A stretch of DNA of 64,000 nucleotides from Escherichia coli (GCF_045037415.1 NZ_CP173438.1), one strand, 5' to 3'; counted from the stretch's first letter, positions 9,105 to 24,395 are shown. Numbers and translations: made by a program. The notes: generated by a model not told the origin, from the letters alone.

Positions 9105-10109
9105 ATGAAACGCGCGTCTTTGCTTACACTCACGCTTATCGGCGCTTTTAGCGCCATCCAGGCTGCCTGGGCGGTTGATTATCCGCTACCACCAACCGGC
9201 AGCCGACTGGTTGGGCAAAATCAAACGTATACGGTGCAAGAAGGGGATAAAAACCTTCAGGCCATCGCCCGACGTTTTGATACTGCGGCAATGTTGATCC
9301 TTGAAGCCAATAACACTATCGCCCCGGTGCCAAAACCCGGTACGACGATAACTATTCCTTCACAACTGTTATTACCTGATGCACCGCGCCAGGGGATAAT
9401 TGTGAACCTTGCAGAACTGCGCCTTTATTATTATCCGCCGGGAGAAAATATCGTGCAGGTTTATCCGATAGGTATTGGTTTGCAGGGGCTGGAAACGCCG
9501 GTGATGGAAACGCGTGTGGGGCAGAAAATCCCTAACCCAACCTGGACGCCTACGGCGGGCATTCGTCAACGTTCGCTGGAGCGTGGCATTAAATTACCGC
9601 CGGTCGTTCCTGCCGGGCCAAATAACCCGCTAGGACGTTACGCACTGCGCCTCGCGCATGGTAATGGCGAATACCTCATTCATGGCACCAGTGCGCCGGA
9701 CAGCGTCGGTTTGCGCGTCAGTTCGGGCTGTATTCGCATGAATGCACCGGATATTAAAGCTTTATTCTCCAGCGTGCGGACGGGAACGCCGGTGAAAGTG
9801 ATCAACGAACCGGTGAAATATTCCGTGGAACCTAACGGGATGCGTTATGTTGAAGTACATCGACCACTATCGGCAGAAGAACAGCAGAACGTTCAGACAA
9901 TGCCGTACACGCTGCCAGCAGGCTTTACGCAATTTAAAGACAATAAGGCTGTAGATCAGAAGTTAGTCGATAAAGCGTTGTATCGTCGGGCAGGGTATCC
10001 GGTTGCGGTGAGCAGTGGAGCAACTCCCGCAGCCAGCAATGCGCCTTCAGTAGAGTCAGCGCAGAATGGGGAACCAGAGCAAGGGAATATGTTACGCGCG
10101 ACGCAGTAG
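9105..10109 (+). CDS. ldtE: L,D-transpeptidase LdtE (YnhG)
   Basis: 334 aa with signal peptide, LysM-like region and YkuD catalytic core (HGT...SSGCIRM). Confidence 0.93.
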
Positions 10110-10123
10110 CGGTAAATAGCAGG

Positions 10124-10155
10124 CAAAAAAATGGCGCACAATGTGCGCCATTTTT
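10124..10155. terminator. bidirectional intrinsic terminator between ldtE and lpp
   Basis: Stem atggcgcaca/tgtgcgccat flanked by an A7 run on one side and T5 on the other; sits between convergent genes. Confidence 0.75.
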
Positions 10156-10171
10156 CACTTCACAGGTACTA

Positions 10172-10420
<249 letters not shown>

Positions 10421-10663
10421 CTAGATTGAGTTAATCTCCATGTAGCGTTACAAGTATTACACAAAGTTTTTTATGTTGAGAATATTTTTTTGATGGGAAG
10501 GCACTTATTTTTGATCGTTCGCTCAAAGAAGCATCGAACGCTGGGTTTTAGATAAAAAAATTGAGAGAAAACAGGATGCTTCCATCGGATTCATCTTAGA
10601 TAAAGTGAGATTATATAGTGAAATCCGATTTGATTTTTTATTGCTTCTGGTTATCGATTAAAT

Positions 10664-10692
10664 AAAAAAAGCGCCCATCAGGACGCTTCGAT
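10664..10692 (-). terminator. probable pykF terminator
   Basis: Imperfect GC stem followed by a T7 run on the minus strand, about 30 nt after the pykF stop. Confidence 0.4.
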
Positions 10693-10718
10693 ATACAAAT
10701 TAATTCACAAAAGCAATA

Positions 10719-12131
10719 TTACAGGACGTGAACAGATGCGGTGTTAGTAGTGCCGCTCGGTACCAGTGCACCAGAAACCATAACTACGACATCACCTTTG
10801 TGTGCCAGACCGCTCTGCAGAGCCAGTTCTTTACCCAGACGGTAGAAGTCATCAGTAGAAGTGATCTCTTTAACCAGCTGCGGCACAACGCCTTTGCTCA
10901 GTACTAACTGGTGAGCCGTTTTTTCGTTGGTGGTCAGTGCCAGGATGGTGGCATCCGGGAAGTATTTACGTACTGCGCGAGCAGATTTACCGCCCTGAGT
11001 AGCAACCACGATCAGCGGAGCATCCAGTTTTTCAGCAGTTTCAACGGCACCACGGCATACCGCTTCGGTTATACGCAGTTTACGGTTGTCATTGTTGAAC
11101 TCGAGACGGCTGTTCATCACGCGGTCGGTACGTTCGCAGATGGTCGCCATGATAGAAACCGCTTCCAGCGGGTATTTACCTTTTGCGGATTCACCAGACA
11201 GCATCACTGCGTCAGTACCGTCGAGGATGGCGTTTGCAACGTCACCGGCTTCTGCGCGAGTCGGGCGTGGGTTTTTGATCATGGAATCCAGCATCTGGGT
11301 CGCAGTGATAACGACTTTACGTGCACGGATACATTTTTCGATCATCATCTTCTGGGCGAAGATAACTTCTTCTACCGGGATTTCTACACCCAGGTCGCCA
11401 CGCGCAACCATGATGCCGTCAGAGGCTTCGAGGATTTCGTCGAAGTTGTTGAGGCCTTCCTGGTTTTCGATTTTGGAGATGATGTGGATGTTTTCGCCGC
11501 CGTGCGCTTTCAGGTGCTCACGGATTTCGATAACGTCAGAACGCTTACGAATAAAGGAAGCAGCAACAAAGTCTACGCCTTGTTCGCAACCAAAGATCAG
11601 GTCCTGTTTGTCTTTTTCAGCCAGTGCTGGCAGGGCAATGGAAACGCCAGGCAGGTTCACACCTTTGTTTTCGCCCAGGTCGCCGTTGTTCAGCACTTTA
11701 CAGATAACTTTGTTACCTTCAATGGCGGTAACTTCCATACCGATCAGACCGTCGTCAACCAGTACGGTGTTGCCAACAGACAGGTCAGTAGTGAAACCTT
11801 CATACGTTACCGCAACCATTTCGCTGTTGCCGATAACAGATTTATCAGTAGTGAAAGTAAAGGTCTGACCCGCTTTCAGAGAAACGTCGTTACCGCCTTC
11901 CAGTTTCATGGTGCGGATTTCCGGACCTTTGGTATCAAGCAGGATAGCGGCGGTTTTACCAGTTTTGCTCATCACGTTGCGCAGATTCTGAATGCGCTGA
12001 CCGTGTTCTGCATAGTCACCATGAGAGAAGTTCAGACGCATAACGTTCATGCCAGCGTCCAGCATTTTAGCTAACATCTCTTCAGATTCGGTTTTCGGTC
12101 CGATGGTGCAAACAATTTTGGTCTTTTTCAT
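10719..12131 (-). CDS. pykF: pyruvate kinase I
   Basis: 470 aa from ATG at 12131 ([19 protein letters not shown]...); the ORF-track extension to 12347 is upstream in-frame sequence. Confidence 0.97.
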
Positions 12132-12687
12132 GACAGTCTTAGTCTTTAAGTTGAGAAGGATGGGAGAAACTTGCTTTCTGGGCGCACTGCCGGAAAGCGA
12201 ATCCGGTATTACGAAAGTGGTTGTGCCTCGCTCTAAGGATAGGTGACATCGAAAAAGCGTGCAGAGGAATGTGTGCTTGTGTCTCAGCCCAACGTGAGTG
12301 CCTGTTTTTGAGTCGTTGAGTTCTACAGTCCAAAGTGCTGAAACCATTCAAGAGTCAATTGGCGCGCATTATACGCTGAAATTAATCCAAAAGGAAAACA
12401 AAAACAGCGTTTCAAAAAATATACAACTTGTTAGACAATAAATTGTTATCAAAGATTCAGCGTTCCAGGGAAAAGGTTACGCAAAAACTTCGTTGTTTGC
12501 GCAACGTCTGGTGCCGGGGTTGTCAGTGTGAGGATAAGTGAAAGTTCATCCGGTGTATAAATACATCATCGCTCAATTGCTACAGTTAAAATAATTTATC
12601 ACGTTATTTGTCTGATTTTGTTTGATTTTTGTTTAATTGGTTAGATTGATATATGCTGATAGTTGGCATGATAAATAGGTATAAAGA

Positions 12688-12897
12688 ATGGGAAACCGGA
12701 CAAAAGAGGATGAACTGTACCGAGAAATGTGCAGAGTTGTCGGTAAAGTTGTGCTGGAAATGCGCGATCTGGGGCAGGAACCAAAGCATATTGTTATCGC
12801 AGGCGTATTACGTACAGCATTAGCCAATAAACGCATTCAGCGCAGTGAGCTGGAAAAGCAGGCGATGGAAACAGTCATTAACGCACTAGTAAAATGA
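12688..12897 (+). CDS. fumD: fumarase D (YdhZ), 69 aa
   Basis: MGNRTKEDELYREMCRVVGKVV... matches recalled YdhZ/FumD. Confidence 0.85.
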   Translation: MGNRTKEDELYREMCRVVGKVVLEMRDLGQEPKHIVIAGVLRTALANKRIQRSELEKQAMETVINALVK

Positions 12898-13137
12898 CCA
12901 TTCAGGATGAGGCGGTAAGCTTCATCCTGATATTGTTAGTTCAGTTGCGGTCCAGTTAATCATTCTAAATAACAACTGCTGAAATTATACGAATTTCGGT
13001 GTATATTTTAATTTATAGCGATAAAGTTATTTTTATTTTCTGCGATGAATTTCACAAATAATTGTCGGTTAAGTTAAATTTATTTCAAATGATAATAAAT
13101 ATCACTTCACTTATAATTTCTTGCTTTGTGATTTTAA

Positions 13138-13151
13138 TTGATAACGATCAA
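13138..13151 (+). promoter_or_regulatory. FNR box upstream of ydhY
   Basis: ttgataacgatcaa is a perfect TTGAT-N4-ATCAA FNR/CRP-family palindrome, about 200 bp upstream of ydhY; the ydhYVWXUT operon is reported to be FNR-activated. Confidence 0.6.
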
Positions 13152-13352
13152 TGTTAAGAGCCCAGAATAATCACATTATTTTTTCTCCTAACCATAAAGG
13201 ATTAGTTTGTTAGCGTTAAATCTTTTCTCATACACTATCGGGTTAGGGAAAATATCTGGTGTTGAGGACAGCGTCAGCAGCGTATTAGTTGAGTGCTTAA
13301 TATCAGGCTGTTGAATTGTCAGCACTGTGTTTGCGAAGAGGATGCGAAATAA

Positions 13353-16102
<2,750 letters not shown>

Positions 16103-18270: not shown

Positions 18271-19083
18271 ATGATCATTACACGAGCAGACCTGCGAGAA
18301 TGGCGTATCGGAGCGGTGATGTATCGCTGGTTTCTGCGCCATTTCCCACGTGGCGGTAGTTATGCCGATATTCATCATGCACTGATTGAGGAAGGATATA
18401 CGGACTGGGCGGAGAGTCTGGTTGAGTATGCGTGGAAAAAATGGCTGGCAGATGAAAACTTCGCGCATCAGGAAGTTTCCTCTATGCAAAAACTGGCCAC
18501 AGATCCCGGAGAACGACTATTTTGCAGTCAGTTTGTCCGCAGCGACGATCATGCTCGCCTCGGCTGTTGTGAGGATAACGCCAGAATCGCAACCGCTGGG
18601 TATGCCGCGCAAATTGCCAGTATGGGTTATAGCGTGCGGATTGGAAGTGTCGGCTTTAACAGTCACATTGGCAGCTCCGGTGCACGCGCACGGGTTGCTG
18701 TAACCGGTAATTCTTCGCGGATAAGCAGCGCTGGAGATAGCGGTCGGATTGCGAATACCGGAATGCGAGTACGCGTTTGTACATTGGGTGAACGGTGTCA
18801 TGTCGCCAGTAATGGTGACCTGGTGCAAATCGCCAGCTTTGGCGCAAACGCCAGAATTGCCAACAGCGGCGACAATGTACACATCATTGCCAGTGGTGAA
18901 AATTCAACGGTAGTGAGCACGGGCGTGGTCGACTCAATTATTCTCGGGCCAGGGGGATGCGCCGCACTGGCATATCATGACGGCGAAAGAGTTCGCTTCG
19001 CCGTCGCCATTGAAGGTGAAAACAATATTCGAGCCGGAGTCCGCTATCGTCTTAATGAACAACATCAGTTTGTTGAGTGCTGA
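18271..19083 (+). CDS. ydhT: protein YdhT (function unknown; internal 9-residue repeats)
   Basis: 270 aa; last gene of the ydhYVWXUT cluster. Confidence 0.88.
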   Translation: MIITRADLREWRIGAVMYRWFLRHFPRGGSYADIHHALIEEGYTDWAESLVEYAWKKWLADENFAHQEVSSMQKLATDPGERLFCSQFVRSDDHARLGCCEDNARIATAGYAAQIASMGYSVRIGSVGFNSHIGSSGARARVAVTGNSSRISSAGDSGRIANTGMRVRVCTLGERCHVASNGDLVQIASFGANARIANSGDNVHIIASGENSTVVSTGVVDSIILGPGGCAALAYHDGERVRFAVAIEGENNIRAGVRYRLNEQHQFVEC

Positions 19084-20824: not shown

Positions 20825-21130
20825 TCAGGCAAGTTTTGCCTGATTGATTTGACTCAGTGGCACATTGACATCGAAAACTTTGGCGACAACTTCCTCAACG
20901 CCGAGATTTTTCAGTCGGGCAGTATGTTTTTCCAGATAGGCAAGGGCGCTTTTTTCATCAGTGAAAAGGTAGATCCCACCGGCTTCGTGGTTCTTTTCAC
21001 TTTCTGTCCAAACCTTCCACAGAAAACCAGGTTCCTGATTAATCGACTCAGCAAGCGGTTTAAGCTGCTCAGCCATTGTGTCGCCAAATGGGCCATTGAA
21101 AGAAAAATGAAGTTGTAACAAAGTTGCCAT
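20825..21130 (-). CDS. ydhR: putative monooxygenase YdhR (dimeric alpha/beta barrel)
   Basis: 101 aa matching recalled YdhR. Confidence 0.88.
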
Positions 21131-21238
21131 AGCGATTCTCCTTCTGATAACGCATACGAAGACAGTGTAAATCTTTTAACGTATTGGATACAGAGAAGAA
21201 ACAGAGGGAAAAAAGGAGAAGACCAGATTAAGAAAATC

Positions 21239-21315
21239 TGGTGCGTCCGAGTGGACTCGAACCACCGACCCCCACCATGTCAAGGTGGTGCTCTAACCAA
21301 CTGAGCTACGGACGC
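21239..21315 (-). tRNA. valV: tRNA-Val (anticodon GAC)
   Basis: Reverse complement reads GCGTCCGTAGCTCAGTTGGTTAGAGCACCACCTTGACATGGTGGGGGTCGGTGGTTCGAGTCCACTCGGACGCACCA; cloverleaf with encoded CCA. Confidence 0.95.
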
Positions 21316-21319
21316 AGGA

Positions 21320-21396
21320 TGGTGCGTTCAATTGGACTCGAACCAACGACCCCCACCATGTCAAGGTGGTGCTCTAACCAACTGAGCTATGAACGC
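21320..21396 (-). tRNA. valW: tRNA-Val (anticodon GAC), second copy
   Basis: Reverse complement reads GCGTTCATAGCTCAGTTGGTTAGAGCACCACCTTGACATGG...CCAATTGAACGCACCA; 4-nt spacer from the first copy. Confidence 0.95.
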
Positions 21397-21703
21397 AACG
21401 TTGTAGGTGACAACGGGGACGAATATTAGCGGCAGAGTGGGAAGGTGGCAAGAGGCAAAACGTAATTTTCTGCGCTATTTCGACCGTTTGCAGAGCTTTT
21501 AAGCAAATTGGCTATATTTTGTTGATTTGCAAGGGCGATTTTTATTCAGGATCGCATTTACATCTGATACAACCCAATAATCCGTGTATCAGAGTTTAAA
21601 CAGAGTTGTTTGCCACCATCTCAAATCTGTCGTGGATAAATCCTTCGTAGCCTTTACACTTAGGTAGCAATAAAGGCACACAGATGCAGCAAAGGAATAA
21701 ATC

Positions 21704-22960
21704 ATGGGATCTGATGCGAAAAACTTGATGAGCGACGGGAACGTGCAAATTGTTAAGACCGGCGAGGTTATTGGCGCGACGCAACTTACTGAAGGCGAGT
21801 TGATTGTTGAAGCTGGCGGAAGAGCCGAAAATACCGTGGTCACGGGGGCTGGCTGGTTGAAAGTGGCAACCGGTGGGATAGCCAAATGCACACAGTACGG
21901 TAACAATGGCACACTATCGGTCAGCGACGGTGCCATTGCCACAGATATTGTTCAGTCCGAGGGAGGCGCAATTAGTCTCTCTACGCTCGCTACGGTTAAT
22001 GGCCGCCATCCCGAAGGTGAATTCAGCGTTGATAAAGGTTATGCCTGCGGTTTGTTGCTGGAAAATGGCGGTAACCTGCGTGTACTGGAAGGCCATCGCG
22101 CGGAAAAAATTATTCTCGATCAAGAGGGTGGCCTGTTGGTCAATGGGACAACCTCAGCGGTCGTGGTAGATGAAGGTGGTGAATTGTTGGTGTATCCAGG
22201 TGGGGAAGCCTGCAATTGTGAGATTAATCAGGGCGGCGTTTTTATGCTGGCGGGGAAAGCCAGTGATACGTTGCTTGCTGGTGGCACCATGAATAATCTC
22301 GGTGGTGAAGACTCTGACACTATTGTTGAGAATGGAGCCATCTATCGTCTGGGGACGGATGGTCTTCAGCTCTACAGTTCCGGTAAGACGCAAAACCTGT
22401 CCGTTAATGTGGGTGGTCGGGCTGAAGTGCATGCCGGTACGCTGGAAAATGCGGTAATACAAGGTGGGACAGTGATCCTGTTGTCACCCACCAGCGCGGA
22501 CGAAAATTTTGTCGTAGAGGAAGATCGCGCACCGGTTGAACTGACCGGTAGTGTTGCATTACTGGACGGCGCTTCAATGATTATTGGCTATGGCGCAGAT
22601 CTGCAACAATCAACGATTACTGTACAGCAGGGCGGTGTATTGATTCTCGACGGCAGTACGGTAAAAGGTGACAGTGTCACTTTTGGTATTGGTAACATCA
22701 ATCTAAATGGCGGAAAACTGTGGCTGATCACTGATGCGGCAACGCATGTGCAACTGAAAGTGAAACGCCTGCGCGGAGAGGGAGCCATTTGCCTGCAAAC
22801 CAGTGCGAAAGAAATTTCACCTGACTTCATCAATGTGAAAGGGGAAGTTACTGGTGATATACACGTTGAGATAACAGATGCCAGTCGGCAAACTCTGTGT
22901 AACGCACTGAAACTACAGCCAGACGAAGACGGGATTGGCGCAACGCTCCAGCCTGCGTAA
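21704..22960 (+). CDS. ydhQ: autotransporter-adhesin-related protein YdhQ (passenger-like, no beta-barrel)
   Basis: 418 aa, Gly/Thr/Val-rich beta-helix-like sequence. Confidence 0.88.
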   Translation: MGSDAKNLMSDGNVQIVKTGEVIGATQLTEGELIVEAGGRAENTVVTGAGWLKVATGGIAKCTQYGNNGTLSVSDGAIATDIVQSEGGAISLSTLATVNGRHPEGEFSVDKGYACGLLLENGGNLRVLEGHRAEKIILDQEGGLLVNGTTSAVVVDEGGELLVYPGGEACNCEINQGGVFMLAGKASDTLLAGGTMNNLGGEDSDTIVENGAIYRLGTDGLQLYSSGKTQNLSVNVGGRAEVHAGTLENAVIQGGTVILLSPTSADENFVVEEDRAPVELTGSVALLDGASMIIGYGADLQQSTITVQQGGVLILDGSTVKGDSVTFGIGNINLNGGKLWLITDAATHVQLKVKRLRGEGAICLQTSAKEISPDFINVKGEVTGDIHVEITDASRQTLCNALKLQPDEDGIGATLQPA

Positions 22961-23000
22961 AAACACAGGCGCAACCCGTGAAGGTTGCGCCTTGTCTTTA

Positions 23001-24395
<1,395 letters not shown>

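Follow-up and report, generated by a model that had tools for sequence, protein, structure and literature searches.

The gene ydhQ, at positions 21704–22960 (+ strand) of a 64,000-nucleotide stretch of Escherichia coli DNA (GCF_045037415.1, NZ_CP173438.1; hereafter the window, with positions counted from its first letter), encodes a protein that matches the interior of a secreted adhesin passenger and lacks the elements required for type V secretion. Four points, taken together, are in our judgement close to certain: the gene is ydhQ, its product has neither a signal peptide nor a translocator barrel, its coding sequence is under purifying selection, and it originated by insertion in Escherichia. 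The full reading that we favour adds residence in the cytoplasm and is one that we regard as probable: YdhQ would be a maintained, soluble, acidic beta-helix exapted from a piece of an Ag43/AIDA-type passenger. The gene has been described before, as has the lack of leader and barrel in its product. The evidence for purifying selection, the reconstruction of the insertion site and the placing of the truncation point within the autochaperone domain refine this picture and do not amount to a new kind of system; as things stand, ydhQ is an uncharacterised y-gene, known before and now more sharply described.

Architecture of YdhQ and its truncation point

The first-pass annotation had placed an open reading frame (ORF) of 418 amino acids (aa) at this position on the + strand, and we obtained exactly the same limits, with an ATG start codon and 418 codons followed by a stop. 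The product matches the NCBIfam YdhQ equivalog (NF007409 / PRK09945) at 938.8 bits, against a cutoff of 830, across profile positions 1–418 of 418. Annotated copies of ydhQ in thousands of genomes are 97–100% identical to the window gene, the database annotation being 'AIDA repeat-containing protein', and the 2.1 kb surrounding ydhQ are 100% identical to several complete E. coli genomes. YdhQ is acidic (isoelectric point, pI, 4.4), has six cysteines and a mass of ~43 kDa, and its composition (G 15.3%, L 10.5%, V 8.9%, A 8.4%, T 7.9%) agrees with its initial description as a passenger-like product rich in glycine, threonine, valine and alanine. The frame is closed at both ends. An in-frame TAA (21698–21700) stands two codons 5' of the ATG, and an AAGGA Shine-Dalgarno motif is present at 21692–21696. 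Seven bases after the ydhQ stop lies a bidirectional, GC-rich hairpin terminator (22967–22992, assigned to neither strand) common to ydhQ and convergent mdtK, which ends at 23001, 40 bp past the end of ydhQ. Because of the upstream TAA and the downstream terminator and mdtK, the ORF cannot be extended in either direction, and the idea that the true ORF might reach further can be set aside.

Pfam assigns four stretches of YdhQ to the AIDA repeats (PF16168, E 7.5e-28), again in agreement with a passenger-like product, and aa 330–403 to the Pertactin family (PF03212, profile positions 2–78 of 121, 27.3 bits against a cutoff of 22). The protein consists of an AIDA-repeat right-handed beta-helix (aa 1–329; 21704–22690, + strand) that is homologous to the middle of Ag43/AIDA-I/TibA passengers, and a partial Pertactin/autochaperone-type domain (aa 330–403; 22691–22912, + strand). 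The next-best NCBIfam match after the YdhQ equivalog is the Ag43/Cah profile, at positions 249–456 of 948.

The first-pass annotation had also claimed that the translocator barrel and a cleavable Sec signal are missing, and both claims held up. Pfam detected no match in YdhQ to the autotransporter beta-domain PF03797 at E <= 1, and none to the ESPR signal PF13018, to PF18883 or to a two-partner secretion (TPS; haemagglutination activity) domain; the protein also has no RTX or C-terminal secretion motif. No hydrophobic h-region is present in the first 50 aa, where 15-residue Kyte-Doolittle means peak at 1.11, the N-terminus carries a net negative charge, and SignalP 6.0 has been reported negative for YdhQ (PMC13101318, 2026). 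We compared more than 100 full-length autotransporters with the whole 64-kb window by tblastn. Every significant high-scoring segment pair (HSP) fell within the ydhQ frame, HSPs running 5' of the ATG showed no identity there, and no barrel-like HSP was found anywhere in the window. No gene for a partner barrel or an exporter lies near ydhQ. A longer ORF, or a hidden signal or barrel, is ruled out by the upstream stop, by the lack of identity upstream, and by the terminator and mdtK downstream. Among the elements of a classical type Va autotransporter, YdhQ has the beta-helical passenger and lacks the Sec signal, the linker with its PF03797 barrel and a complete autochaperone; among those of a TpsA exoprotein, it lacks the signal peptide, the TPS domain and the adjacent TpsB transporter. 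Without a Sec/ESPR signal, a linker or a beta-barrel, YdhQ cannot be a type V secreted protein.

Comparison with full-length autotransporter homologues, which had been proposed as a check on whether the barrel was lost, shows where YdhQ stops. Relatives that align across the C-terminus of YdhQ, among them P0122 (a 1,175-aa Citrobacter protein), P0144 (an 826-aa TibA-type protein from E. coli), P0138, P0168 and P0172, run ~370–400 residues past its aligned end. These extra residues comprise the rest of the Pertactin domain, the linker and a PF03797 barrel of ~240 residues. In the multiple alignment, the last residues of YdhQ (GEVTGDIHVEITDASRQ..LKLQPDEDGIGATLQPA) are still homologous to autotransporter GEANGNFNVYIADTGVSP..LQIIQTGGGNAEFNLA. 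The ORF stops just short of the terminal autochaperone strands (GAYNYNL...WHL is missing), ~35 residues before the position from which full-length relatives go on to the complete domain, linker and barrel. An exhaustive search of 1.84 billion representative proteins returned one cluster above 50% identity, consisting of YdhQ itself and fragments, and the next match was a 1,534-aa, ESPR-bearing autotransporter at 38% identity. A parallel family of barrel-less AIDA proteins (P0060, of 422 aa; P0113; P0124; P0163) was considered and rejected, since these sequences terminate in frameshift-like junk or at the ends of contigs, all on tiny contigs.

We modelled YdhQ with AlphaFold2, using an input of eight YdhQ-family sequences (the query and seven orthologues) and 13 trimmed autotransporter segments. 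The predicted structure is beta-strand throughout (predicted local distance difference test, pLDDT, 90.4; predicted template modelling score, pTM, 0.88), with low confidence restricted to residues 1–7 and to a loop at aa 264–275. This conserved acidic loop (SADENFVVEEDR; 22493–22528, + strand) is the sole low-confidence segment in the interior of the model; autotransporter relatives have a shorter loop there or none, and it is a candidate interaction motif. The best matches in the PDB, by sequence and by fold, are the Ag43-family passengers 7ko9, 7koh, 7kob and 4kh3, and TibA 4q1q, with Foldseek E values against Ag43 and TibA of 1e-10 to 4e-8; Pertactin, Hbp, IgA1 protease and UpaB match the model weakly. 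Two other identities were tried and rejected: viral structures (BFVD) gave generic beta-helix matches only, arguing against a phage tailspike, and no match to a defence system was found with PADLOC.

Conservation and genomic origin of ydhQ

We observed ydhQ in 5,423 of 5,426 complete E. coli genomes (at least 80% coverage, 97.6–100% DNA identity) and in every sampled Escherichia species whose locus could be assessed. At the same position, E. albertii, E. marmotae, E. ruysiae, E. whittamii, Escherichia sp. E4742 and other lineages carry orthologues of 418 codons; the orthologue has 419 codons in a 72%-identical lineage represented by four assemblies. No stops or frameshifts were found in ydhQ of any sampled Escherichia lineage. 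Relative to the window allele, the Nei-Gojobori ratio of nonsynonymous to synonymous substitution (dN/dS) for ydhQ is 0.07–0.12, at dS of 0.43–2.8; for the neighbouring genes it is 0.011–0.018 (mdtK) and 0.065–0.23 (ydhR). Synonymous sites of ydhQ are near saturation, and because dS is high, recent gene conversion among all lineages is excluded as an artefact behind the signal of purifying selection. In a neutral simulation at the observed dS, none of 2,000 ORFs remained intact and the mean number of premature stops was 10–17. The first-pass annotation had offered 'a degenerate adhesin fragment' as one possibility; the constant length of 418–419 codons, the near-universal presence of the gene, a dN/dS of ~0.10 and the outcome of the simulation all contradict it. 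We conclude that ydhQ is under purifying selection and has been kept as a 418-codon ORF since the Escherichia ancestor.

Constraint is not uniform along the protein. Over aa 1–329, dN/dS is 0.04–0.12, with the strongest constraint in the N-terminal repeats (0.04–0.09), and the weakest constraint is in the autochaperone-like C-terminal quarter (0.22–0.26), a relaxation that would fit loss of the secretion-related role of that segment.

Disruptions of ydhQ are rare. In E. coli AR_0013 (locus L090, 4505–7422), one of only ~3 of the 5,426 complete genomes without an intact ydhQ, ISEcp1 splits the gene into two annotated pseudogene halves. Apart from these disruptions, the 948 bp after mdtK in Escherichia sp. 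MOD1-EC7003 (locus L010, 4725–5672) show no similarity to the window and code for an IS630-like transposase at a contig end.

With MdtK as the anchor, we collected 80 syntenic enterobacterial loci, one genome per species; E. fergusonii and basal Escherichia genomes are not among them. Among these loci, ydhQ is present at the site between mdtK and the tRNA-Val(GAC) pair valV and valW (21239–21396, - strand, upstream of ydhQ) only in Escherichia. By contrast, in ~45 loci of other genera the first tRNA-Val gene begins ~150 bp past the mdtK stop; genera with this empty site include Enterobacter, Lelliottia, Leclercia, Citrobacter, Salmonella (S. enterica subsp. arizonae), Kosakonia, Trabulsiella, Buttiauxella and Atlantibacter. 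The empty sites of ~150 bp elsewhere indicate that ydhQ is a genus-specific, single-gene insertion and not a remnant of a shared autotransporter, and they rule out in-situ loss of the barrel from a resident autotransporter shared with other genera.

To define the boundaries, we aligned ten empty sites, from 10 genera, to both ends of the E. coli spacer. Escherichia keeps ~115–120 bp of the ancestral valV promoter block (21397 to ~21511), and the Escherichia-specific insert of ~1.5 kb (approximately 21512–23000, assigned to neither strand) comprises a leader of ~190 bp, the ydhQ gene and, in place of the ancestral terminator hairpin, a new one. The ydhQ/mdtK terminator arrived with the insert, since its sequence differs from that of the mdtK terminator in ydhQ-less genera. 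The gene is monocistronic, between the tRNA promoter and the terminator, and its GC content (51.1%) equals that of the genome. The fragment may have arrived already truncated, or it may have been trimmed from a larger insert in the Escherichia stem lineage. A plasmid or phage donor was sought and not found: no closer relative is carried by a plasmid or phage, and all matches in mobile elements are below 30% identity.

The 23-kb, unannotated record CP025887.1 ('Escherichia phage 503046') ends in 303 codons of an 85%-identical ydhQ (22176–23081), most likely host chromosomal DNA joined to a phage record, and three PLSDB entries of 4.8–4.9 Mb that carry ydhQ (NZ_CP134663.1, NZ_CP141089.1 and NZ_OL790696.1) are evidently chromosomes filed as plasmids. 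Throughout the Enterobacteriaceae, the mdtK-valVW spacer (loci L010–L089, ~9375–14000) is a hot spot for insertions whose content is unrelated from genus to genus, examples being a TetR gene and a short-chain dehydrogenase gene in Pseudescherichia, a LOG-like gene in K. pneumoniae, porin and transporter genes in a Citrobacter (L035), and a LysR-type regulator with other genes in Raoultella. In Kosakonia oryzendophytica (locus L081, 9864–16394, - strand), a complete autotransporter of 2,176 aa, whose N-terminus is ESPR-like and whose C-terminus has a barrel motif, is encoded directly beyond the tRNA-Val pair; hence autotransporter genes do land at this tRNA locus.

Cellular location of YdhQ and rival explanations

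Several published observations bear on where YdhQ acts. A YdhQ-pFAST fusion without a signal peptide was fluorescent and cytosolic, and 'surface display' of YdhQ was obtained only with an exogenous signal peptide (PMC13101318). The same study terms YdhQ a leaderless autotransporter and gives no explanation for anchoring without a barrel. YdhQ has been detected by proteomics (PMC6561319), has been reported in copurification with EF-Tu (PMC2672614), and is one of 17 unannotated RNA-binding candidates from orthogonal organic phase separation (OOPS; PMC11066096).

We compared the composition of YdhQ over homologous segments, with 105 secreted autotransporters and then with nine enterobacterial relatives of the Ag43/TibA type. 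Relative to the 105 autotransporters, YdhQ orthologues are far more charged (99th percentile) and poorer in N/S/T/Q; relative to the nine enterobacterial proteins, YdhQ has the lowest N/S/T/Q fraction. YdhQ has six cysteines, and its orthologues three to six, whereas eight of the nine nearest secreted relatives have none. Secreted passengers are cysteine-poor; the six cysteines of YdhQ therefore favour a protein that no longer crosses the envelope. A broader argument from composition was dropped, as only cysteine content and low N/S/T/Q stay distinctive under the strict enterobacterial control.

Synthesis of YdhQ may be controlled through its leader. An alignment of seven lineages shows conservation of ~80 bp 5' of the ydhQ ATG, a leader block (21628–21703, + strand) that includes the AAGGA Shine-Dalgarno motif and the in-frame TAA; GGA motifs at 21634, at 21694 (inside the Shine-Dalgarno motif) and at 21707 are invariant in all seven. 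The 5' untranslated region of ydhQ is among 19 direct targets of CsrA identified by reporter and trimolecular fluorescence complementation (TriFC) assays (PMC5389547). A peak for FlhDC in the ydhQ-valV spacer has also been reported, from genomic systematic evolution of ligands by exponential enrichment (gSELEX; PMC9962212). We rejected FlhDC control specific to ydhQ, because the published FlhDC box (~21441–21484) lies within the ancestral valV promoter block, and genera that lack ydhQ conserve this block too.

A number of points weigh against an intracellular, CsrA-controlled YdhQ. EF-Tu is a common contaminant of affinity purifications, and the OOPS result may be indirect, because RNA binding is not likely for a protein this acidic (pI 4.4). 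Under the strict composition control, the charge and leucine content of YdhQ are not distinctive, and the ydhQ leader has no significant predicted structure (z = 0.75), so that a structured 5' leader is not supported. The cytosolic localisation rests on an over-expressed fusion, not on native YdhQ (PMC13101318). YdhQ is among the autotransporter-family proteins listed from extracellular-vesicle proteomes (PMC10458587), and ydhQ is stated to be needed for early adhesion (PMC9110714, citing Roux et al. 2005), a statement that is hard to reconcile with the absence of any anchor. Lastly, Delta-ydhQ strains serve as neutral controls, with no known phenotype.

The vesicle listing and the adhesion statement would be accounted for if YdhQ reached the surface or the medium non-classically, through vesicles, lysis, flagellar type III export or piggy-backing, and acted there as an adhesin or biofilm matrix protein in the manner of its Ag43/AIDA relatives. 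We consider this unlikely. In sequence and fold YdhQ matches the self-associating adhesin passengers, surface display has been reported once an exogenous signal peptide is added (PMC13101318), and positive selection on ydhQ together with yfaL and ycgV has been stated alongside the adhesion requirement (PMC9110714); an FlhDC peak lies in the ydhQ-valV spacer (PMC9962212), but its box belongs to a promoter block also found in ydhQ-less genera. The protein has neither a signal peptide nor a barrel, and likewise no TPS domain and no RTX or C-terminal secretion motif, and its gene has no neighbouring exporter; the fusion stayed cytosolic without an added signal (PMC13101318), and YdhQ has six cysteines where secreted relatives have none. 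The first-pass annotation had raised dependence on another export route, and in view of the missing TPS domain, partner barrel and exporter, and of the cytosolic signal-less fusion, such export is unsupported. As for the vesicle listing, cytoplasmic proteins are routine in vesicle proteomes. Residence in the cytoplasm is also assumed in a different account, in which YdhQ would be a substrate or decoy for O-heptosyltransferases (Aah, TibC and similar enzymes), which modify AIDA-type strand-loop-strand repeats in the cytoplasm before export. TIGR04415 ('O_hepto_targRPT') scores above its cutoff at aa 41–77 (37.6 bits against 30), TibC-glycosylated TibA (4q1q) is among the closest folds, and a plasmid AIDA-like gene adjoins such a transferase gene. 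However, ydhQ is universal in Escherichia while aah and tibC are limited to some pathotypes, and no transferase gene lies near ydhQ, making a role as substrate or decoy very improbable.

The remaining two accounts treat the protein as non-functional or incidental. Were ydhQ a slowly decaying, non-functional pseudogene of an autotransporter without signal peptide and barrel, one would understand why it has only an internal part of the autotransporter architecture, ending inside the autochaperone domain, why its deletion has no known phenotype, and why rare natural disruptions occur, such as that by ISEcp1 in AR_0013. This is scarcely credible for a gene that is found in 99.9% of complete genomes, has a dN/dS of ~0.10 with dS up to 1.1–2.8, and retains equal length without stops or frameshifts when none of 2,000 neutral ORFs did so; moreover, its leader and Shine-Dalgarno motif are conserved and its protein is detected in proteomics. 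The locus might instead be kept at the level of RNA or DNA, for a leader or mRNA that titrates CsrA, for the mdtK terminator or for insulation of the valVW promoter, with the protein incidental. The leader is a reported direct CsrA target with invariant GGA motifs, and the insert provides the sole terminator between convergent ydhQ and mdtK. We nonetheless think this highly unlikely: it leaves unexplained the amino-acid constraint across the whole ORF (dN/dS of 0.04–0.26 by region), and a 150-bp spacer suffices in other genera.

We therefore return to the reading that we favour, a maintained passenger fragment that resides in the cytoplasm. The ancestor of the genus Escherichia acquired ydhQ once, as a ~1.5-kb insertion at the variable mdtK-valVW site that brought its own leader, ribosome-binding site and terminator. 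The encoded protein, which corresponds to an internal piece of a self-associating passenger with about two thirds of the autochaperone (Pertactin) domain, would stay in the cytoplasm as an exapted beta-solenoid serving in binding or as a scaffold, and CsrA may gate its synthesis post-transcriptionally via the GGA motifs at and around the Shine-Dalgarno motif. EF-Tu and RNA, both taken from published high-throughput work, are candidate partners. A more specific version is tentative and to our minds rather doubtful: in a rare case of its kind, a passenger captured without its secretion machinery would have been exapted as an acidic beta-solenoid, gated by CsrA, whose targets are the translation apparatus or RNA (the EF-Tu and OOPS results); such binding would possibly be through the strongly constrained N-terminal repeats or the acidic loop at aa 264–275. 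If true, this would give the AIDA-repeat proteins a functional class not seen among them before.

Lists of genes and engineering work repeatedly treat YdhQ as an 'autotransporter adhesin', for example as a surface-display scaffold and among biofilm and antibiotic-resistance genes. Given that it lacks the type V elements and is nevertheless under strong purifying selection, the surface-adhesin phenotypes ascribed to YdhQ need re-examination. Should an intracellular role be established, ydhQ would cleanly illustrate the domestication of a secreted-adhesin fold for cytoplasmic function, and would also show how genus-specific core genes are seeded by tRNA-adjacent hot spots.

Neighbouring features and known systems

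The neighbours of ydhQ are the two tRNA-Val genes, ydhR and mdtK. A full-length match to RF02194 ('HPnc0260 bacterial antisense RNA' in Rfam; 112 bits, against a gathering score of 59) at 21114–21277 (+ strand) runs across the 5' end of ydhR, the 3' flank of the first tRNA-Val gene and part of that gene. Elsewhere in the window, ydhT (18271–19083, + strand) encodes a signal-less, repeat-rich protein of 270 aa that looks beta-helical. It shows weak tblastn similarity to autotransporter passenger repeats (18586–18993, E 0.004–0.4) and, in Pfam, a sub-threshold match to DUF6876 only; the YdhT_N family appears in a precomputed list.

The window gene does not differ from the YdhQ family of the K-12 b1664 type: its full-length match identifies it as the same gene. 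With the type Va proteins Ag43 (Flu/Cah), AIDA-I and TibA, YdhQ shares the 19-residue AIDA strand-loop-strand repeats that form a right-handed beta-helix, and the order of repeats followed by a Pertactin/autochaperone-type segment. Unlike them, it has no signal peptide, ESPR, linker or 12-stranded barrel; it begins inside the repeat region and stops at about position 80–90 of the 121-position autochaperone profile; identity to them is only 22–38%; it has six cysteines where they have none; and it is cytosolic when expressed as encoded. As regards the surface exposure and homotypic cell-cell aggregation of the self-associating autotransporter (SAAT) adhesins as a group, the YdhQ sequence contains none of the known targeting elements. 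TpsA exoproteins (type Vb) resemble YdhQ in being beta-helical passengers encoded apart from a barrel, but they have a Sec signal, an N-terminal TPS domain and an adjacent TpsB barrel gene, none of which accompanies YdhQ. Finally, ydhQ is like the autotransporter pseudogenes of K-12 in being an autotransporter-derived ORF without the complete architecture. We take ydbA, ycgH, yaiT and ydeK/ydeU to be such split or decayed genes, presumably broken by insertion sequence (IS) elements, frameshifts or stops and variable between strains; by contrast, ydhQ is an intact core gene of the genus that keeps a fixed length under purifying selection.

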